DNA of 64,000 nucleotides from positions 6,752,001 to 6,816,000 of the forward strand of contig OZ245006.1 of NCBI GenBank assembly GCA_965223545.1, written 5' to 3'. Position 1 is the stretch's first letter. The number at the start of each line of letters is the position of its first letter. Source of the stretch: Planctomycetota bacterium (GTDB taxonomy: Bacteria > Planctomycetota > UBA1135 > UBA2386). Position numbers and translations under genes: made by a program. The notes beneath the pieces are model-generated. The model was not told where the DNA came from, made no database searches, and worked only from the letters and a program-made list of their open reading frames with translations. Of this stretch, positions 9,553 to 30,411 are shown piece by piece.

Positions 9553-10701
9553 TCAGGGCGCGAGAGTGCGCATCGCCGGCAGCGTGAGCGTGGCGCTGCC
9601 GGTGGGCAGCAGCACCGCGGCCTGCAGGGCCAGCGGGGTCAGCGGCGCGTTCACCGGAATCGGAAACGCGCCCGTGAGGCTACCGCCGCCGCCGATGGTC
9701 CCGGCCTGCAGCACGGCCCACGGGGTGCCGACGAACCACGTGCCCAACGGCCCGGCCGCGATCGGTGCCGCGGGCAGCCCGGCGACCAAGACGCTGGCCG
9801 ACCCAGCGGGCGCGTGTACGGCCGTCGCCAGCTGACCCGCGACGACGCTGGCGTCGGTCCACGGCACCGTGGTCGCGATCCAGGTGACCGGTCCCTCGAC
9901 CAGACCGGCGCCGTTCACCGGCACCAGCGACAGGCCGAAGTCGGTGCGCACGGTGGTGAGCGAAGCGCTCGTGCTGGCCTGGCCGTCGACCGCCGGCGCG
10001 GGCAGCGGGCCGCCGGTGCCGGCGGCGATCGAGGCGCCGGGGCCTCCGGAGGCGGCGAGGGTGGCGTCGCGGATGGCGACGCCCGGCCCGGGGCCGACGG
10101 TCGCGTTCCCCGGGCCGCCGACCAGGACCGTCTCGGCGGCGGCGACGCGTCCTCGGAGCACGGTCATCGCCGGCGCGCCGACGGCGGTGGCGCGCAGGTC
10201 GCAGCGGTGCAGCACGACACCACTGCTCGCCGTGTGCAGGGCCTCGCCCGCGGTCGCGGTCGCCGTCACCGCCTGCAGCGACACGCGCCCACTCTGCACC
10301 AGTCGAATGCCACCGCCGAGGCGCAAGCTCTCGAGGTGGACCTGGCCGGTGCTGCCGCTGACCGATACCTGGGCCGGCGAGGTGAAGCCGCGCACCAGGG
10401 TCGGCCCGTCGACCAGATCGATGCGGATCACGTCGCCGGCACTGCCCACCGTCACGCCGGGAAAGGCCTCCACCGTCAGGTGCGTCAGCGCGATCGAGAA
10501 CGACGAGTAGGCGCCCGGCAGCACGGTGATCCGGTCGCCCGGCGCAGCGGCGGCGATCGCCGCGGGAATGTCGGTGAAGTTTCCGCCGCCGCCGGCGGCG
10601 ACGACCCAAGTCGTCTGTGCCGGGGCGCTGCTGACGGTCACGGCGGCGATGACGAGGCCGGCGGCAGCGGCCGGCGGGGCGAGGAGCGAAAGGGTCGGCA
10701 C
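9553..10701 (-). CDS. Exported protein: pectin-lyase-like beta-helix N-terminus plus shared C-terminal domain
   Basis: Signal peptide ending APAQ, FTDIPAAIAAAAPGDRITVLPGAY beta-helix cap motif. Start approximate (GTG 10701). Confidence 0.65.
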   Translation of the reverse strand: MPTLSLLAPPAAAAGLVIAAVTVSSAPAQTTWVVAAGGGGNFTDIPAAIAAAAPGDRITVLPGAYSSFSIALTHLTVEAFPGVTVGSAGDVIRIDLVDGPTLVRGFTSPAQVSVSGSTGQVHLESLRLGGGIRLVQSGRVSLQAVTATATAGEALHTASSGVVLHRCDLRATAVGAPAMTVLRGRVAAAETVLVGGPGNATVGPGPGVAIRDATLAASGGPGASIAAGTGGPLPAPAVDGQASTSASLTTVRTDFGLSLVPVNGAGLVEGPVTWIATTVPWTDASVVAGQLATAVHAPAGSASVLVAGLPAAPIAAGPLGTWFVGTPWAVLQAGTIGGGGSLTGAFPIPVNAPLTPLALQAAVLLPTGSATLTLPAMRTLAP

Positions 10702-10814
10702 CCATCCAAGATACGCTCGCGGTGCTGGAGTGGCTGGTTCCACGGTGTTGCCCTTTTCCCTGGCCCCTCTGGACGCGAGCCAACGTCCTGGCGGCGTGCG
10801 CTCCGATTCCAACC

Positions 10815-11348
10815 ATGTCCACGACGACCGGTGAGCTGCGAGCGGGCGGGCGGGCAGAGACCCGCGCCGGTTCCGCCGCCGGCCGCGATGCCTGGATCGC
10901 GCGCCAGAGCGACCTGCTGTGGCGCTACCTGCGGTATCTCGGTGCCAGCCGCGAGCTCGCCGAGGACGTGATGCAGGAAGTGCTGATCCGCGCGCTCGCG
11001 CATCACGGCACCGCGCGGCCGGGGTGGCTGCGTACCACCGCGCGCAACCTGCTGGTCGACCATTGGCGGCGCGAGGGCCGGGCACCGCTTTCGGTCGACG
11101 CCGCCGCGCTCGAGCGGGTTTGGTGTGCGCAGGACACCGACGCGCGCCGGGGCGCGCTGCGCGCCTGTCTCGATGGGCTGCCGGCGCGTTCGCGTCAGGT
11201 GCTCGAGCTGCGCTACGGCGATGGCCTTGGTTGGTCGGAGATCGGCGCGCGCATCGGTCTGCGCGCGCAGGGGGTCAAGAGCTTGTTGCAGCGGCTGCGC
11301 GTCGCTGTGCGCGGTTGCGTCGAACGGAGGTTGCGCGATGAAGAATGA
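10815..11348 (+). CDS. ECF RNA polymerase sigma factor (planctomycete/verrucomicrobial type)
   Basis: Region 2: LWRYLRYLG...AEDVMQEV, WLRTTARNL. Region 4: ALRACLDGLPARSRQVLELRYGDG..EIG...GVKSLLQR. Confidence 0.9.
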   Translation: MSTTTGELRAGGRAETRAGSAAGRDAWIARQSDLLWRYLRYLGASRELAEDVMQEVLIRALAHHGTARPGWLRTTARNLLVDHWRREGRAPLSVDAAALERVWCAQDTDARRGALRACLDGLPARSRQVLELRYGDGLGWSEIGARIGLRAQGVKSLLQRLRVAVRGCVERRLRDEE

Positions 11349-13008
11349 CGAGCAGCGGTTGAGCGCGGCTTGGCTGACGGCGGCGTTGGAGGCGGAGCTG
11401 GGCGCGGTACCCGACGTGCGCGCGGCGGTGTTGGCGGCGGCTCCAAGCGTGCCGCCGCGCGCGGGCCTTCGGCGGCGCGGATGGCGAGTCGCGACCGCGG
11501 CGCTGGCGGCGGCGACGACGGTGGCGATCTTGCTATGGCCTCCGGCCGGCGTGTCGACCACGCCCGCGGATCGCGAGGCCCAGGACCCGGCGCCGGTCGA
11601 GCGCGCGGTGACCGCGACCTCGGTCGACGCTCTGCGTGCCCTGCTGGCCGACCTGCGCGCCGTGCGGCTCGGCTACGAGCACGCCTACACGCGCCACGCT
11701 TCCCCGGCGGGCGTGGCGATGGAGATCAACGGCTGGATCGAGGTCCCCGGCGTGGTGGTCGAGGCACCGCTCCGCGCCCTCGAGCTGCTGGATCGGCCGC
11801 CGCGGCCGGGGCGTCACGGCGCCGTCAACTTCCGCCTCGCGCGGTGCGAGCTCTTGTTGTCCGGCGAACGCGTGCTGCGCGGTGGGTTCTGGTTTGGCGA
11901 GGGCGGCGGCGTGTTCGTGCCCGAGCTGGGCATGTGCGCGGTGAGCGAGGCATCGCAGCAGCGCGTCGCGGCATTGCTGCCGGACCTCGACGCGCTGGCC
12001 GCGGAGCGCTTTGCGTTGGTCGCGACTGTCGAGCAGCTGCGCGCAGTGCCGCGGTCGGTCGAGCACGTCGTCGCCTGCGGCCTCGGCGACGCCGACCTCG
12101 CCGGGTTCGCCGCGCTGCCGGGGCTGCGCCGGGTCGCGCTCGACGCCGACGGGCTCGGGCGCGCCGGCGTGCCGTTCGTGCGCGCCGCGCTCGGCGACGG
12201 CGCGGTGCGGGCGCTCGCCGGCTGGGGCGGGCTCGAGGCGGTCGAACTCGCCGGCGCACGGGTGTCGGCGGCGGCGCTGCGCGAGCTGTCGGCGCTGCCG
12301 CGCTTGACCTCGGTGATGCTGCGCGACTGCGCGCTCACCCTGCACGAGGCGCCGCCCGCGAAGGCGGAGGTCGTTTTGCGCGCCGAGCGGGTCGAGCTGC
12401 GCGGCGGCTCGGCCACCGGCCTCGAGACCGACGGGCTGGCGCGGATCGCCGCGCGACATCTCTCGATCACGGGTGGGGGTGGGGGAGGTGTGCTGGCGTT
12501 GCCGGAGGACGGCGAGCTGCCGGCTGGGCTCGAGCAGCTGGAGCTCGCCTTCGTCACGCTCGATCTGTCGGCGCTGCCGTCGTACGCCCAGCTGCGCCGC
12601 CTCGCGCTGCGCGGCTGCGGGCTGTCGTCGGAGACGCTGGTGGCGATTGCCGCGACCCGGCTCGAGCGGCTCGAGCTGTCGGGCTGCCGCGGTGTCGACG
12701 GCGCGGCGTTGCGGACGGCGCTGGCGCTGCCGTCGCTGCGCGCGGTCGCCTTGCGCGAGCAGAACGCAGGGCGCGGCACGGATGTCGACCTGGCCGTCGT
12801 GCTCGTCGAAGCCGCCGCCGGGATCGAGGAGCTCGATCTGACCGGCTCGACCTGTGATCGAGCAGTGCTCGACGTGTTGCGGCAGCGCACGGGGCTCAGG
12901 GTGCTGCGCTTGGGTGGCACCGGCTTGTCGGACCTGGATCTCGACCGGCTGCGGCGGCGGCTGCCGAGCACGCTCGTGCTGCCCGAACCGGCGTCGGGCG
13001 GGCGGTAG
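11338..13008 (+). CDS. Putative anti-sigma factor: single TM, extracytoplasmic leucine-rich repeats
   Basis: Overlaps the sigma stop codon. Short N-terminal domain, Arg cluster, TM (VATAALAAATTVAILLWP), then LxxLxLxxC-type repeats (LRRLALRGCGL, LERLELSGCRGV, IEELDLTGS, LRVLRLGGT). Confidence 0.75.
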   Translation: MKNDEQRLSAAWLTAALEAELGAVPDVRAAVLAAAPSVPPRAGLRRRGWRVATAALAAATTVAILLWPPAGVSTTPADREAQDPAPVERAVTATSVDALRALLADLRAVRLGYEHAYTRHASPAGVAMEINGWIEVPGVVVEAPLRALELLDRPPRPGRHGAVNFRLARCELLLSGERVLRGGFWFGEGGGVFVPELGMCAVSEASQQRVAALLPDLDALAAERFALVATVEQLRAVPRSVEHVVACGLGDADLAGFAALPGLRRVALDADGLGRAGVPFVRAALGDGAVRALAGWGGLEAVELAGARVSAAALRELSALPRLTSVMLRDCALTLHEAPPAKAEVVLRAERVELRGGSATGLETDGLARIAARHLSITGGGGGGVLALPEDGELPAGLEQLELAFVTLDLSALPSYAQLRRLALRGCGLSSETLVAIAATRLERLELSGCRGVDGAALRTALALPSLRAVALREQNAGRGTDVDLAVVLVEAAAGIEELDLTGSTCDRAVLDVLRQRTGLRVLRLGGTGLSDLDLDRLRRRLPSTLVLPEPASGGR

Positions 13009-13119
13009 AGACTTGCGGCGGACCGCGACGGCGGGCGGGCGGTCTGCCCCTGCCCGTTACCGCAGCGGTTTTCTCGAATACCCGGGTGCCGTCCCCGCGA
13101 GCTTGTTTGGCAGCAGACA

Positions 13120-13647
13120 GTGCAGTTTGTCCGCGACGCGTCCACGTCCAGTTTGGACTCCTTTGTTCGCCGCCACATGCCCGACGTTTGGCACTACCTC
13201 CGCCTCTGCGGCTGCGATGCCGAGACCGCCGACGACCTGACGCAGGAGGCGTTCTTGGTGGCGCTGCGCAAGGGCGTCACGCCGGAGCCCGAGCGCGGCG
13301 CACGGCGCTACCTGCGGCGGACGGCGCGCTTCGTGCTGCTGCAGCACCGCCGGCGGGTGGCGCGGGAGCGCTGGGAGCGCGGCTCCGAGGCGTGGCTGGA
13401 TGTGGTCGACGAGGTTTGGGAGGAACGGCAGGCGGCCGATCACCTCGACGGCTGGCTGGCGGCGCTGCGGCGCTGCCGCGCCAAGCTCACCGGCCGCCGC
13501 TCGCGCGCGGTGGCGCTGTTCTACGGTGAGCGGCGTTCGCGCGCCGAGGTCGCGGAGGCCCTTTCGATGACCGAGAACGGCGTCAAGACGCTGCTGCAGC
13601 GGGTGCGCGCCGATCTCCGCGCGTGTGTCGAGAGGATCCTGCGGTGA
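13120..13647 (+). CDS. ECF RNA polymerase sigma factor (second copy)
   Basis: VWHYLRLCGCDAETADDLTQEAF; ALRRCRAKL...EVAEALSMTENGVKTLLQRVR. Confidence 0.9.
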   Translation: MQFVRDASTSSLDSFVRRHMPDVWHYLRLCGCDAETADDLTQEAFLVALRKGVTPEPERGARRYLRRTARFVLLQHRRRVARERWERGSEAWLDVVDEVWEERQAADHLDGWLAALRRCRAKLTGRRSRAVALFYGERRSRAEVAEALSMTENGVKTLLQRVRADLRACVERILR

Positions 13648-15212
13648 CCGGGGGGCGGGAGACCGAACGGCAGCGGGTCGACGACCGTTGGCTCGACGTG
13701 GCCCTCGAGATGGTCGAAGGCCGTGGGCCGCGGCCGGGCCTCGCCGAAGACGTCGCGCGGCAGCTTCGCGCCGCGCCGGCGCTGCCCCGCCGCACGCGGC
13801 GTCGCTGGCCCTCGATCGCACTGGCTGCCGCCGCGGTGGTCGCGGTCGCCGGCCTGGGCTGGCTGGCGTCGGCGGGCGGATCGCCAGAGGTCGAGGTCGC
13901 ACGCGAGGTCGAGGTGGCGGTGGTGCGCTCGGCGGTCGAGGTCGCGGTGCTGCCCGAGACCACGCGCGCGGTGCGCGGTCTGGGGCTCGATGCGGCCGCC
14001 CTCGCGAGCCTGCGACGCCTGCGCTCGTTGGCTCGGCTCGAGCTGCTGCCGGCGGACGCGGATGAGGGCTACGGAGGCGAAGATCATGGAGCGGTGCCCG
14101 CACTTTCGGACCGGGGTTTCGCGACGGTCGCGACCCTTCGCGGGCTCCGCTCCGTTTCCATCGAACGGCTGCAGCTGTCACCGGCGGCGCTCGCCCGGCT
14201 GAGCGAGCTGCCGCGGTTGGACGCGTTGGCGCTCAAGGGTGTTCCGCTGAGCGACGGCCATTTCGACGCGGTCGCGCGGCTGGCGGGGCTGCGCACCTTG
14301 GTCCTCGAGGGCCCGGTCGAGGCCGGCGCCGCTGCGCACCGGCGGCTGGCGGCTCTGCCGCAGCTCGAAGACCTCGATCTGTCGGTGTCGTGGCATCGGC
14401 GCAACCCGCCGTCGGACGATCCCGCCGCGCGCGCCGCGTTCGCCCGGCAGCTGGCGGTCGTCGACGACGCTTTGCTCGAGGTGTTGGCCGGGATGCCGAG
14501 CCTGCGCCGGCTGGTGCTCCGCGGCCGGCCGGCGGTCACCGATCGCGGCCTCGCGCTGCTCGCCGCGCTGCCGCTCGAGGCGCTGGACCTGTCGGGCTGC
14601 AACGGCATCACCGACGCCGGCTTGGCGCAGCTGCCCAGCAGCCTGCGCAGCCTGTCGCTGGCGTCCTGCGCCGAGGTCGGCCGCTCGTTTCCCGAGCACT
14701 TGACCGGCTTGCGCTCGCTGGTCCTGTCGATCAATCCCAACCTCGATGACGCCCAGCTGGCGCGGATCACCGCGCTCCCCGAGCTGCGCGCGCTCGACCT
14801 GCGGGTGTGCAGCAACCTCACCGCCGAGGGCGCGCGCGCTCTGGCGGGGGCCGCCGAGCTCGAAGAGCTCTTCCTGTGCGGCTCGCCTTGGCTCGACGAC
14901 ACCGTGATGACCGCCCTGGCCCAGCTGCCGCGCCTGCGCGAGCTGGGCATGGCGGGTTTCGGCCAGAGCCAGCTGACCGGAGCCGGCGTCGCCGAGCTGG
15001 CGCGGCTGCCGCAGCTCGAAGTGCTGCACGTCTCCGGCATCCAGCCGCTGGCCGCGGCGGACGTGCGCGCCCTGGCCGGGCTGCCGTTGCGCTACCTCGA
15101 CGTCTCCGACAACCGCATCGCGTTCGACCGTGAGTCGCCGGACGTGGAGGCGCTGCGGGGGCTGTGGTCGGGGATCGAGCTGCGTGCCGATCGGGTTGCT
15201 GGCGGGCGCTGA
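13644..15212 (+). CDS. Putative anti-sigma factor: single TM, extracytoplasmic leucine-rich repeats
   Basis: GTGA overlap with the sigma gene. TM (WPSIALAAAAVVAVAGLGWLA), then many LRRs (LEALDLSGCNGITDAGL, LRALDLRVCSNLT, LRYLDVSDNRI). Confidence 0.8.
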   Translation: MTGGRETERQRVDDRWLDVALEMVEGRGPRPGLAEDVARQLRAAPALPRRTRRRWPSIALAAAAVVAVAGLGWLASAGGSPEVEVAREVEVAVVRSAVEVAVLPETTRAVRGLGLDAAALASLRRLRSLARLELLPADADEGYGGEDHGAVPALSDRGFATVATLRGLRSVSIERLQLSPAALARLSELPRLDALALKGVPLSDGHFDAVARLAGLRTLVLEGPVEAGAAAHRRLAALPQLEDLDLSVSWHRRNPPSDDPAARAAFARQLAVVDDALLEVLAGMPSLRRLVLRGRPAVTDRGLALLAALPLEALDLSGCNGITDAGLAQLPSSLRSLSLASCAEVGRSFPEHLTGLRSLVLSINPNLDDAQLARITALPELRALDLRVCSNLTAEGARALAGAAELEELFLCGSPWLDDTVMTALAQLPRLRELGMAGFGQSQLTGAGVAELARLPQLEVLHVSGIQPLAAADVRALAGLPLRYLDVSDNRIAFDRESPDVEALRGLWSGIELRADRVAGGR

Positions 15213-15290: not shown

Positions 15291-16358
15291 ATGAACGAAC
15301 CTCGCGCTCTTGTTCGATCGCTGGCCGGCTGTGGCGCCCTCGCTTGGCTGACGGCTTGCGCGACTCCCCTCGAGCTCGAGCCGCAGCCATCGGGCACCGA
15401 CCAAAGCCTGCGCGGCGTCTGCGCGGTCAACGCCGACGTGGTCTGGGCGAGCGGCGCGACCGGCACCGTGTTGCGCACCACCGACGGTGGTGCGACCTGG
15501 CAGCACCGCGCCATCCCCGGGGCTGAGCAGCTCGACTTTCGCGATGTGCACGCCCTCGACGCGCAGCGCGCGTGGGTGATGGTGGCGGGTGCGCCCGCGC
15601 GCATCTACGCAACCGCGGACGGCGGCGCGACGTGGCAGGTCCAGGCCGAGCATCCGAGCCCGAGCGCGTTCTACGACAGCATCGCCTTCTGGGAGCCGCA
15701 GAACGGCCTGCTGTTCGGCGATCCGGTGGAAGGCGCACTGACGGTGTGGACCACGACCGACGGCGGCGCCAGCTGGCAGCCCGCGCGCGCTCCGGAGCTG
15801 CCGGCGCCGCTGGCGGGTGAGGCCGGCTTCGCGGCCAGCGGAACCTGCGCGTGCGTGTGGGGCGACACACACGCTTGGATCGGCACCGGCGGGGGTGCGC
15901 GCGCTCGGGTGTTGCGCAGCGAAGACCGCGGCCGCAGCTGGCAGGCGGCCGACACGCCGCTGGCCGCCGGCACATCGTCGGCGGGGATCTTCTCGCTCGC
16001 GTTTCGCGATGCGCAGCACGGAGTCGCGGTCGGTGGCGACTACCAACAGCCCGCGCGGGCGACCGGCAACGCCGCGGTCAGCGCCGACGGTGGCGTCACC
16101 TGGAACGCCGCCCAGGTGTCGCCGCGCGGCTATCGCTCGGCGGTCGCCTTCGTGCCGGGCAGCGCGCGGCCGCTCTGCGTCGCGGTCGGTCCGACCGGCG
16201 TCGACTTCTCGGTCGACGGTGGGGCGCAGTGGTTGCCGTTCAGCGACGCCGGCTACCACGCGGTAGCGGTCGCGCCGGACGGCGCCGCGCTGTGGTGCGT
16301 CGGCGCCGGCGGGCGCATCGCCCGGCTGGCGGAGCCGGCGCGGCTGGGCGCGCCGTAG
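15291..16358 (+). CDS. BNR/Asp-box beta-propeller lipoprotein (YCF48-like)
   Basis: Lipobox WLTAC. Repeated Asp-boxes TTDGGATW, TADGGATW, TTDGGASW, SEDRGRSW, SADGGVTW, SVDGGAQW. Confidence 0.85.
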   Translation: MNEPRALVRSLAGCGALAWLTACATPLELEPQPSGTDQSLRGVCAVNADVVWASGATGTVLRTTDGGATWQHRAIPGAEQLDFRDVHALDAQRAWVMVAGAPARIYATADGGATWQVQAEHPSPSAFYDSIAFWEPQNGLLFGDPVEGALTVWTTTDGGASWQPARAPELPAPLAGEAGFAASGTCACVWGDTHAWIGTGGGARARVLRSEDRGRSWQAADTPLAAGTSSAGIFSLAFRDAQHGVAVGGDYQQPARATGNAAVSADGGVTWNAAQVSPRGYRSAVAFVPGSARPLCVAVGPTGVDFSVDGGAQWLPFSDAGYHAVAVAPDGAALWCVGAGGRIARLAEPARLGAP

Positions 16359-28030: not shown

Positions 28031-29074
28031 TCAGCGCCGCCGGCGGGGAGCCGTGGCGGCGTCTTCGGTCGGTGGTTGGGGCAGCTCGAGCTGCCAGTGC
28101 ACGACCAGCTTCGGCCGGCGCGCGCGCAGCGCGCGGATGCCGTCCTCCGTCACCGCGGTCCGCCACAGCCAGACTTCGCGCAGTGCGGGGAGCGCGGCCA
28201 GGGTGTCGAGGACGCCGTCGTCGACCTGGGTGCCCCAGAGGTTGAGTCGCCGCAAGTGCGCGGCGTCGCGCAGTCGCGCCACGCCCGCCGCCGTCACCGC
28301 GGTGCGGTGCAGGTCGAGACGCCACAAGTGCGGCATTCGCGCCAGCGAGCGGAGGGCCTCGTCGGTGATCGCGGTGCGGCCGAGGTCGAGGTGGCTGATG
28401 TGCGCGCGCAACGGCTGCAGAGCGTGGATGGCGTCGTCGTTGGTGTCGTCCTCGGCACCGCGGAAGGCGATCCTCAACAGCGCGGACCCGGGTTGCGCCG
28501 GGCTGATCTGAGCTCGTTGGCCCGCGGCGTCCAGCTGACTCGGGGTGGCGGGAACGAGCTCTTCGCCCAGCGCCAGCAGCGCCACCAGTGCCGCTGGTGG
28601 CACGTCGTCGGCCCTTTCTGGGCCGGCGGCGCCGCGCCAGTCGCCGAACGGTGCACCGCTCTCGATCCAAGATCGCAGAACAGTCCGGTCCACTTCATCG
28701 AGGGGGTTGCTGCTGCGCGGCATGCGTCGATCGTCGTCCGGCGGCAGGCCAGTGCGCGTGTAGAGGGGGCTCTGCTCGGGGGCGCCGGGAGTCAGCACGC
28801 TGCCCTCGGCGCCGCCACGGCGAATCCACCCGACGCCGTCGAGGCGCAGGCCACCCTTCGGTCGGCGCGCGCGGCCGCGCGCGTCGACGCCGCGGTGGCA
28901 GCGCAGGCAGGCGCGCTGCAGGATCGGCAGTACGTCGCGCTCGAAGTCCGGTGCCGCGGTCGCCGCCGCCGGTGTCGATTTGATCTGACCAACGGCGTCG
29001 CCCGCCGACCAGGCCAGTCCGCCGAGGGCCAGCGCGGCGATCGCGCGAGTGCGGTGGCGGGAATCGCGGTTCAC
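28031..29074 (-). CDS. Planctomycete cytochrome c domain + leucine-rich repeat protein
   Basis: Signal peptide, DFERDVLPILQRACLRCH, RMP..WIESGA, then LRRs (LDLGRTAITD, LDLHRTAVT, LNLWGTQVDD, VWLWRTAVT). Confidence 0.85.
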   Translation of the reverse strand: MNRDSRHRTRAIAALALGGLAWSAGDAVGQIKSTPAAATAAPDFERDVLPILQRACLRCHRGVDARGRARRPKGGLRLDGVGWIRRGGAEGSVLTPGAPEQSPLYTRTGLPPDDDRRMPRSSNPLDEVDRTVLRSWIESGAPFGDWRGAAGPERADDVPPAALVALLALGEELVPATPSQLDAAGQRAQISPAQPGSALLRIAFRGAEDDTNDDAIHALQPLRAHISHLDLGRTAITDEALRSLARMPHLWRLDLHRTAVTAAGVARLRDAAHLRRLNLWGTQVDDGVLDTLAALPALREVWLWRTAVTEDGIRALRARRPKLVVHWQLELPQPPTEDAATAPRRRR

Positions 29075-30411
29075 GCCAACAACCCCGGCACCGGAATGCC
29101 CTTGTGCGCGACCTGGAACGGTCGGCCGTCGCCCGACAGCAGCACCCAGTCGGTGCGCAGGCCGAGCGCGTGCGCGATGGTGGCGTTGAAGTCGGGCACG
29201 CTGACGCGGCCGTCGATCACCGCGCTGCCGGTCGCGTCGGTCTCGCCGTAGCGCTGTCCACCGCGCACGCCGCCACCGGCCAACAGGCAGCTGTAGGCCT
29301 GCGGGTGGTGGTCGCGCCCGTCGCGCCCGGCGGCGATCTTTGGCGTGCGGCCGAACTCGGTGGCGAGCACCACCAGGGTCTCGTCGAGGAGCCCGCGCGC
29401 CTCGAGGTCGAGCAACAGCGAGGCCAGCGCGCGGTCCAGCGCCGGCGCCTTTTCCTCCAGCGTCTCGAAGTTGTCGTTGTGCGTGTCCCAGCCGTCGTCG
29501 ACCACCTCGACGAAGCGGACGCCGTGCTCGACCAGGCGCCGCGCCAAGAGGCAGCCCTGGCCAAAGCGATCGCGGCCGTAGGCGTCGCGCGTGCGCTCGT
29601 CCTCTTCTGCCAGCTCGAACGCGCGCAGGTCGCGCGATTGCATCAGCCGGACGGCCTGGTCGTAGACCTCGGCGTAGCTGCGCACCGCCTTGCTGCGGTA
29701 CTGCGCGGCAAACCGGTCGTTCATCTGCTGCAGCCGGGCCAGCCGCCGGTGGAAGGTCTCGTCACTGACGTCACGCGGCGGCCGGCTGTGCTGCAGGCCC
29801 GCCTCCGGATCGCCGATCGGCAGCGGGTGGTGGGCGGTTTCGAGAAAGCCCCCGGAAGCACTGAAGATGTCGCCGCCGATGGTGACGTGGGGAGGCAGGC
29901 TCGGGTGGATCGCGCCGGCCATGCGCGAGGCCCACGCGCCCATGCTCGGGTGGCGCACGGTGCCGCGCATCTCGTAGCTGGTGTGCAAGTAGTAGCGGCC
30001 CTGCGCGTGCGCGCCCTGCGTCGTGTTCATGCCGCTGACCACGCAGACGCGGTCCATCAGCCGCGCCAGGTTGGTGAAGTGGCTGGCGATCCGGACTCCG
30101 GCGACGTTGGTGTCGATGGTCTCGGTCGGTCCCTGCCCCGCGCTGCCGGGTTTGGGATCGAACGTGTCGAGATGCGACATGCCGCCGCTCATGTAGAGGT
30201 AGATCACGCTGCGCGCCGTCGCCGGCCGCAACGCGGGTGCTGTCGCGTCCTGCGGTCGCGGTCGGCGGGCGGGATCCTGCGCCGCGAGCGCAACCAGCCA
30301 GGGCATACCCCCGACGCCGAGTGCGCGGTGCGCCACCGACGACAAGAACGCTCGCCGGTCGGCGAGGTCGGTCGAGCGCGGCAAGAACGCGCGGCGGGCA
30401 GAGTGCGTCAT
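29071..30411 (-). CDS. DUF1501 family protein
   Basis: DRRAFL, IYLYMSGGMSHLDTFDPKP, ARRLVEHGVRFVE, GWDTH, TEFGRTP, GRDHHP. Confidence 0.92.
   Translation of the reverse strand: MTHSARRAFLPRSTDLADRRAFLSSVAHRALGVGGMPWLVALAAQDPARRPRPQDATAPALRPATARSVIYLYMSGGMSHLDTFDPKPGSAGQGPTETIDTNVAGVRIASHFTNLARLMDRVCVVSGMNTTQGAHAQGRYYLHTSYEMRGTVRHPSMGAWASRMAGAIHPSLPPHVTIGGDIFSASGGFLETAHHPLPIGDPEAGLQHSRPPRDVSDETFHRRLARLQQMNDRFAAQYRSKAVRSYAEVYDQAVRLMQSRDLRAFELAEEDERTRDAYGRDRFGQGCLLARRLVEHGVRFVEVVDDGWDTHNDNFETLEEKAPALDRALASLLLDLEARGLLDETLVVLATEFGRTPKIAAGRDGRDHHPQAYSCLLAGGGVRGGQRYGETDATGSAVIDGRVSVPDFNATIAHALGLRTDWVLLSGDGRPFQVAHKGIPVPGLLA

Follow-up and report, generated by a model that had tools for sequence, protein, structure and literature searches.

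We found that two consecutive gene pairs in a 64,000-nt stretch of a Planctomycetota bacterium genome (contig OZ245006.1, positions 6,752,001 to 6,816,000; hereafter the window) belong to an apparently undescribed, coherent variant of extracytoplasmic function (ECF) sigma/anti-sigma signaling that is related to ECF46/TIGR02989. In our interpretation, to which we assign a probability of roughly 0.68, each pair consists of an ECF sigma factor and a single-pass membrane partner, whose short head binds and likely inhibits the sigma factor and whose outer leucine-rich repeat (LRR) domain is the sensor that triggers its release. The anti-sigma role of the partners, taken across the readings weighed below, is very probable on the computational evidence from sequences and structural models, and by analogy a direct sensory role for the LRRs is plausible. 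Judged from sequence comparisons, the family is defined by a sigma subfamily together with a minimal two-helix head, and not by the LRRs, which are one type among ten or more exchangeable outer domains. We name the sigma factors ECF1 and ECF2 and their respective partners AS1 and AS2:

10815..11348, + strand: ECF1, ECF sigma factor (177 aa) with sigma2 and sigma4 domains (Pfam, NCBIfam) and cysteines C118/C168
11338..13008, + strand: AS1, predicted anti-sigma factor (556 aa) with two-helix head, Arg cluster, transmembrane (TM) helix, insert domain and degenerate LRRs
13120..13647, + strand: ECF2, ECF sigma factor (175 aa) with sigma2 and sigma4 domains (Pfam, NCBIfam) and cysteines C119/C169
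13644..15212, + strand: AS2, predicted anti-sigma factor (522 aa) with two-helix head, Arg cluster, TM helix and 15-repeat LRR solenoid

The two-helix head and its predicted grip on the sigma factor

The original prediction had placed four open reading frames here, and all four were found at those positions on the + strand, with each partner gene overlapping its sigma gene, by 11 nt in ECF1/AS1 and by GTGA in ECF2/AS2. Its reading of the partners as anti-sigma factors is supported by conserved coupling to the sigma gene at the +1 position, by predicted sigma binding and by a likely descent from the class I anti-sigma domain (ASDI). Complex prediction, which had been proposed as a check, favored binding in the ECF2/AS2 pair: ECF2 (residues 8-175) with the AS2 head (residues 1-56) scored 0.83, whereas the best of three controls scored 0.00. 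This passes a mark that is reached by solved complexes in 116 of 157 cases and by mismatched pairs in 2 of 215, counts that are only roughly valid with our own alignments. At least 83% of contacts are common to the runs, and the predicted local distance difference test score (pLDDT) of the partner is at least 74; resemblance to solved sigma/anti-sigma complexes may account for the pass. Head residues 17-25 are placed on sigma4 (113-120, 131-136 and 163-166 of ECF2), and residues 29-33 on sigma2 (24 and 38). The model thus has helix A of the head packing on sigma4, with helix B against sigma2, so that the dual grip of class I/II domains would be achieved with two helices. Such a dual sigma2/sigma4 interface has been described for ASDI and for the two-helix CnrY (PMC7406223). 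The class II arrangement, in which the first of two helices lies on sigma4 and the second on sigma2, is seen in the predicted ECF2/AS2 complex only.

The N-terminal motif said to be common to AS1 and AS2 is not significant in a pairwise comparison (BLAST E=0.024), and emerges at the level of the family, in a hidden Markov model (HMM) of the head. When trained without the genome that holds the window, this HMM gives AS2 42.7 bits, AS1 19.6 bits and the partner at locus L001 no match. The suggested search with the motif separates the family well, with 7 of the 9 family partners of the genome at 20 bits or more compared with a single hit at the 141 other ECF loci. Likewise, an HMM made from the first 69 partners recovers 48 of 56 new distinct partners at the same threshold. 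In a wider search, the head profile matches 1550 clusters (50% identity) at E<=0.001. LRRs are present in 85 of the 123 top matches of at least 250 aa, a figure that is biased by training, with 11 of the matches near-identical to training rows. Chance adjacency of the sigma and partner genes was rejected on the basis of the conserved coupling and the specificity of the head.

In the family partners, the median length of the segment that precedes the TM is 55 residues, and the zinc motif HxxxCxxC is found in 0 of 123. Two helices precede the TM in the models of AS1 and AS2, rather than the four of ASDI, with its three-helix bundle and helix 4. A search of PDB sequences to a limit of E=10 yielded no match of the head to CnrY or NepR, nor were these among the 25 Pfam families listed at E<=1. 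More distant sigma factors of the same clade (109-137 bits with the family HMM) are mostly accompanied by partners with a longer head. The long-head profile matches RslA (E=0.0086), RsiW (E=0.023) and DdvA (E=0.36), and one long head contains zf-HC2. Since the long heads have these matches and it is with their residues 41-70 that the short head aligns (hhalign probability 73, E=3.1e-5), the short head is probably a class I anti-sigma domain reduced to its last two helices by a truncation that removed the first two. The sigma tree does not demonstrate a single origin of the short head: those of L186 and L205 fall among long ones, with four changes in all. Head and sigma similarities are correlated (Mantel rho 0.39; permutation maximum 0.10), with the proviso that kin are not independent.

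A distinct sigma subfamily with paralogs in the genome

Both sigma factors match Sigma70_r2 and Sigma70_r4_2 above the Pfam cut-offs, and in having sigma2 and sigma4, no sigma3 and fewer than about 200 aa they have the makeup of ECF (group IV) sigma factors. The best NCBIfam model for both is TIGR02989 (Sig-70_gvs1), with 87.5 bits for ECF1 and 96.5 bits for ECF2; its cut-off of 124.55 bits is reached by neither. ECF1 and ECF2 are 34% identical. A recent tandem duplication of the two modules was considered and rejected, in view of this identity, the separate positions of the sigma factors in the tree and the patchy alignment of the LRRs.

The whole genome (8.1 Mb in two contigs, labeled G000) was searched for further members. 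With the family HMM, nine of its sigma factors score 172-215 bits and the next 76, delineating a distinct subfamily, although these nine are also training rows of the model. The gene after each of the nine codes for a protein with a single hydrophobic helix, and the short heads of these proteins are alike. The idea that the two modules belong to a paralogous family is thus upheld, with nine paralogous pairs in the genome, of which five have LRRs in the partner: AS1, AS2, and those at L003, L005 and L007, with L003 and L007 lying below the Pfam cut-offs. The remaining four partners comprise one with DUF3299, one with DUF1579 and two without a Pfam domain. LRRs follow 0 of the 141 other ECF loci tested in the genome. 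An LRR profile built from relatives, which is biased toward the family, detects seven proteins of the genome, five of which are these partners.

The genome is generally rich in ECF-like sigma factors (152 domain matches over 15 bits), and about half of its 141 non-family ECF loci have long C-terminal tails. Two LRR proteins are encoded away from any sigma gene, at G000:C1:3875802-3877193 (+) and at about 28034-29761 (-) of the window; their N-termini resemble planctomycete cytochrome c domains.

A cysteine pair in sigma4, with the two residues 50 apart, is invariant in 123 of 123 family sigma factors. In SigK, a disulfide between C133 and C183 stabilizes the RskA complex, and this type of pair is reported in 94% of ECF18, 56% of ECF19 and less than 2% of other families (PMC7509140). 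SigK is only 15th among the PDB matches of the family sigma profile.

Architecture of AS2 and AS1

The order of parts originally proposed for both partners, namely a short N-terminal domain (taken to be cytoplasmic), an Arg cluster, one TM and LRRs, was recovered in each of them, but a domain of about 140 aa that separates the TM of AS1 from its LRRs had been missed. The LRR regions of the two align in short patches only. The parts of the two proteins are as follows:

13644..13811, + strand: AS2 two-helix head (residues 1-56), predicted to bind ECF2 (complex prediction, head HMM)
13812..13868, + strand: AS2 predicted TM helix (residues 57-75; hydropathy 2.13, model helix 57-75)
13917..15158, + strand: AS2 LRR solenoid (residues 92-505), ribonuclease-inhibitor/F-box type (Pfam, AlphaFold model, fold matches)
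11338..11487, + strand: AS1 two-helix head (residues 1-50), divergent (model helices 2-21 and 25-33; 19.6 bits with the HMM trained without its own genome)
11488..11538, + strand: AS1 predicted TM helix (about residues 51-67; mean Kyte-Doolittle hydropathy 1.63, uncharged run 51-77, model helix 48-66)
11581..11589, + strand: AS1 QDP juxtamembrane motif (Q[DE]P)
11599..12012, + strand: AS1 insert domain (about residues 88-225), alpha/beta, about 140 aa (alignments, model)
12013..12984, + strand: AS1 LRR region, about 12 repeats with an irregular middle part (model, Foldseek, LRR BLAST cluster)

The LRRs of AS2 lie above the Pfam cut-offs (LRR_4, 46.9 bits; LRR_6, 34.3 bits), and its AlphaFold model (pLDDT 84.8) has helices at 3-24 and 33-42, the helix at 57-75 and 15 beta-alpha repeats, with FBXL2 and ribonuclease inhibitor as the closest fold matches. 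The LRR domain is of the ribonuclease-inhibitor/F-box (beta-alpha) type. The hallmarks of an LRR solenoid, tandem LxxLxL repeats and a beta-alpha horseshoe, are clear in AS2 and weak in AS1. In AS1 the match to Pfam LRR_4 (E=0.0069) is below the cut-off, the model has a pLDDT of 64.9, and the Foldseek matches are LRR proteins, the best at E=5.5e-6. Its insert domain is shared with about seven other LRR partners in alignments; searches of Pfam and PDB gave no usable match to it, and the best score in the Atlas, 0.78, is within chance.

The family in related genomes

A first sample yielded 69 matches in 12 of 21 related genomes, 67 of them outside the window. All 67 of these sigma genes have a TM-bearing gene at the +1 position, with a 4-nt overlap in 59, and the same overlap recurs at 46 of 56 further loci. 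More positive charge before than after the TM in 61 of 67 partners, together with a single hydrophobic helix (from hydropathy and the AS2 model), provides clues to the orientation. Across the class, 55 of 201 genomes have a match, including 29 of 39 in the taxonomic family of the window genome, where there are up to at least 17 copies per genome; elsewhere copies are mostly single. A part of these class-wide matches formed the second sample, with 57 new partner rows (56 distinct) and two loci cut by contig ends. Removal of duplicates and of two truncated rows (L112 and L113) left a final set of 123 pairs.

LRRs are the outer domain in 48 of these pairs, followed by two FecR-like clusters (25 and 12), propellers (9) and carboxypeptidase-regulatory domains (4), with DUF3299, DUF1579, HEAT and SecDF-P1 in three each, thioredoxin in two and 11 singletons. 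The FecR-like label of the two clusters (37 pairs) is weak, as they have no Pfam match and reach only E=0.017 to 6OVK_R; clear FecR matches occur only in more distant members. LRR partners account for 45 of 101 pairs in one taxonomic family (f1) and for 0 of 19 in four others; the remaining three LRR pairs are at loci without a family assignment. Elsewhere in the phylum, in classes other than this one, the head is joined to vWA, EF-hand, FecR, DUF1549 and kinase domains, and to LRRs once (L173, 1 of 42 scanned). On a quick sigma tree the outer-domain label changes 22 times, versus 68.9 when shuffled. The LRR state alone changes 13 times, at least five of these being forced by well-supported branches, and the two window sigma factors stand apart. 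These counts imply multiple exchanges of the outer domain, after which the new combinations were retained as lines that span genera.

Several architectures in and around the family deserve mention. In L187:2-3043 (-), located 3' of a family sigma gene, a Ser/Thr protein kinase domain is joined without an intervening part to the same short head, a possible anti-sigma/kinase hybrid. The 769-aa protein P0024, named 'internalin A' in its source, unites in one chain an ECF part (sigma2/sigma4), a hydrophobic stretch and an extended LRR array. SecDF P1-like outer domains are found at L055, L061 and L062 (Pfam match in two of three). The propeller-type members L043, L129, L137 and L030 adjoin a conserved gene pair that looks DsbD-like and thioredoxin-like, which may point to a redox function in these members.

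Upstream motif and neighboring genes

The family sigma genes are preceded by a motif of roughly the form TG(C/T/A)ACCC(T), 12-14 nt, GG(G/C)AT. A position weight matrix (PWM) scores it above 12 bits in 55 of 122 upstream regions and in 1 of 60 shuffles, the PWM having been trained on these same regions. An in-frame start codon lies 7-9 nt after the motif in 37 of 64 sites above 8 bits, and this placement suggests that the family transcripts are leaderless and autoregulated. Two candidates lie in the window:

13075..13104, + strand: candidate family promoter motif before ECF2, with -35-like GAATACCC, a 13-nt spacer and a -10-like block (PWM)
10782..10814, + strand: weak candidate before ECF1 by position only, picked by eye (sequence)

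The ECF2 site scores moderately, at 11.2 bits with the family PWM and 9.9 bits with a PWM trained without the window genome. The ECF1 candidate is unsupported, because the PWM does not pick it.

The region upstream of ECF1 is short and shared with a divergent gene at 9553-10767 (-), which probably encodes an exported Gly/Ala-rich protein and whose product has no Pfam match. At 15291-16358 (+), 78 nt after AS2, lies a gene for a lipoprotein-like BNR/YCF48 beta-propeller, a possible member of the operon; it is not conserved beside other LRR loci. In run X4, one contig covers module 1 (window 10500-12966) at a depth of about 393 and ends at 12966, and no long piece is listed over module 2; this proves nothing, as records may be hidden by a filter. 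A public contig covers the entire window without differences and may be the source of this DNA.

A proposed model for LRR-gated sigma release and its alternatives

In the mechanism that we favor, the head of about 50 residues would keep the sigma factor bound at the inner membrane, and the LRR on the predicted outer side would bind a ligand, likely a protein or peptide since the repeats are of the ribonuclease-inhibitor/F-box type. By analogy with known systems, the membrane protein would then be cut near the membrane and subsequently by an RseP-type protease, and the freed sigma factor would transcribe its own operon from the family promoter, plus further targets. The cysteine pair might add a SigK-like redox or stability layer. 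Genes for M50 proteases are present in the genome and likewise in 14 of 14 control genomes, so that their presence only permits the proteolytic step.

A number of observations weigh against this model. AS1 is a divergent member, with a weak TM (1.63) and a head of only 19.6 bits that was not recovered in a genome-wide search with the HMM trained without its own genome. The head by itself has no meaningful anti-sigma match in Pfam or PDB sequences, and its link to class I is moderate (30 columns, probability 73). The family cysteines match those of SigK in spacing and sigma4 position only, and a search with sigma4 alone, aimed at the SigK alignment, gave no match. One family-scoring sigma factor, L176, is without a recognizable head-bearing partner. 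No motif scores in the region before ECF1, where the best PWM value is 0.2 bits, and a PWM scan of the genome uncovered no regulon above chance (232 matches over 13 bits, versus about 532 in shuffled DNA). Beyond small clusters of two or three loci, the LRR loci lack a conserved neighbor that could hint at the ligand. Finally, RskA has been reported as both inhibitor and activator (PMC7509140), and hence pure inhibition by the partner is not assured.

The modules might be true anti-sigma systems in which the LRR is a scaffold or shield that binds an accessory periplasmic protein, in the manner of RseB or PbpP, or guards the cut site, with the signal being read elsewhere. In favor of such a role, the head is combined with ten or more unrelated outer domains, among them enzymes and a wide variety of repeats, and LRRs of the ribonuclease-inhibitor/F-box type are general protein-binding scaffolds. 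The sensor of RsiP, moreover, is a separate protein, PbpP (PMC8844934). However, the type of outer domain tracks the sigma sub-clades across genera (22 changes, versus 68.9 when shuffled), which would be expected if each type had a distinct input, and no accessory gene is conserved beside the LRR loci; we therefore consider a scaffold or shield unlikely. A motif after the TM raises another alternative, a cleavable signal anchor from which signal peptidase would free the LRR at or near Q[DE]P, either constitutively, yielding a secreted effector with the head as residual inhibitor, or as a regulated site-1 cut like that of RsiP, for which site-1 cleavage by signal peptidase is known (PMC8844934). 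Of the 123 partners, 53 have a Q[DE]P in the 40 aa that follow the TM, as against 0.01 expected per 42 aa; it is found in 27 of 48 LRR partners and 0 of 37 FecR-like ones. It also stands directly after signal-peptide-like segments in 96 cases among other proteins of the genome, 41 of them with Ala at -1, which suggests a lineage-wide signature of mature N-termini. In the partners, on the other hand, it lies mostly 8-23 residues past the TM, the -1 position is a poor match to signal peptidase, with Ala in just 13 of 53 cases and Pro in another 10, the median of 55 residues before the TM is long for a signal peptide, and AS2 lacks the motif altogether. A signal anchor thus appears improbable.

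Still less probable, to the point of being remote, is that the partner is mainly a positive transducer with a pro-sigma activity of the FecR or RskA type, whose head would stay on the sigma factor and activate it after a signal. Many distant members have FecR domains, and SigK reportedly requires the cysteine pair that it has in common with the family in order to be activated through RskA (PMC7509140). Nevertheless, the predicted head contacts cover sigma2 and sigma4 surfaces that are needed for RNA polymerase and -35 binding, and the LRR members have no FecR domain. Release of an inhibited sigma factor by an LRR sensor remains our preferred interpretation.

Implications and relationship to known systems

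The type of system is not new, as ECF/anti-sigma signaling with varied outer domains is well known. What looks new is the prevalence of LRR solenoids as the commonest outer domain in one bacterial family (f1), the size of the family and the candidate promoter motif that comes along with it. Also apparently new is a class I domain cut down to a class II-like clamp, an architecture relevant to the relationship between the anti-sigma classes, which has been raised as an open question (PMC7406223). A 56-residue inhibitor, a 175-residue sigma factor and a predicted promoter would make an easy reporter system, one suited to sensor engineering if outer-domain swaps work. We also advance, as a tentative and rather doubtful extension, that the family is an undescribed ECF group in which the shrunken class I clamp is a plug-and-play chassis. 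One planctomycete family would then have expanded this chassis into a set of LRR receptors, several per genome and in orthologous lines across genera, that would recognize foreign proteins or peptides and signal through orthogonal, redox-gated sigma factors. If true, these would be a bacterial parallel to the LRR receptor repertoires of eukaryotes.

No LRR anti-sigma factor was found in the literature searched, which excluded two papers on planctomycete ECF groups, Wiegand 2020 and Jogler 2012, that could lower the novelty. The former reportedly defines 30 planctomycete ECF groups, and the latter is also said to define such groups. In the 2021 ECF classification (PMC7826278), the main text contains neither 'leucine' nor 'LRR', and the supplement, to at least ECF290, has no mention of leucine-rich or LRR and one unrelated 'leucine'. 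Leucine is likewise absent from the sections consulted of PMC7671368 and PMC8103513.

The closest known relative is ECF46/TIGR02989, the Rhodopirellula/Verrucomicrobium family, which provides the best NCBIfam model of both window sigma factors and has a single-pass partner at +1. FecR plus Laminin_G_3 partners are the signature of ECF46 (PMC7826278); they are present in the distant clade members L181, which passes the TIGR02989 cut-off, and L203. In contrast, the window sigma factors are below that cut-off, and AS1 and AS2 are without FecR and LamG, carrying LRRs and a two-helix rather than a long head. The ECF46 promoters are described as not conserved (PMC7826278), whereas the window-sigma family has its upstream motif. 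SigK-RskA of Mycobacterium (ECF18/ECF19) has the sigma4 cysteines 50 residues apart and a single-pass anti-sigma factor at +1, and serves as a model for release by intramembrane proteolysis; AS1 and AS2 differ in having neither the RskA domain (Pfam) nor an RskA-type outer domain, and a shorter head.

In its predicted grip, with one helix on sigma4 and one on sigma2, the head resembles the class I domain of RseA, RslA, RsiW and DdvA and the class II CnrY. It differs from class I in having two helices only and no zinc motif, and is similar to CnrY in size with no match in sequence. RsiV and RsgI are also single-pass anti-sigma factors released by site-1 and then site-2 proteolysis, and the RsgI families vary their outer sensor domain. 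In Bacillus thuringiensis the single-pass RsiP follows the same course, with signal peptidase making the site-1 cut (PMC8844934). The sigma groups and heads of all three are unrelated to those of the window family, and the description of RsiP, in the portions consulted, includes no LRR (PMC8844934). Eukaryotic LRR receptors provide an analogy only. TLRs and LRR-RLKs share with the partners the order of head, one TM and LRR solenoid; the fold of AS2 is nearer to FBXL2 and ribonuclease inhibitor than to TLR, and its output would be the release of a sigma factor instead of kinase or TIR signaling.

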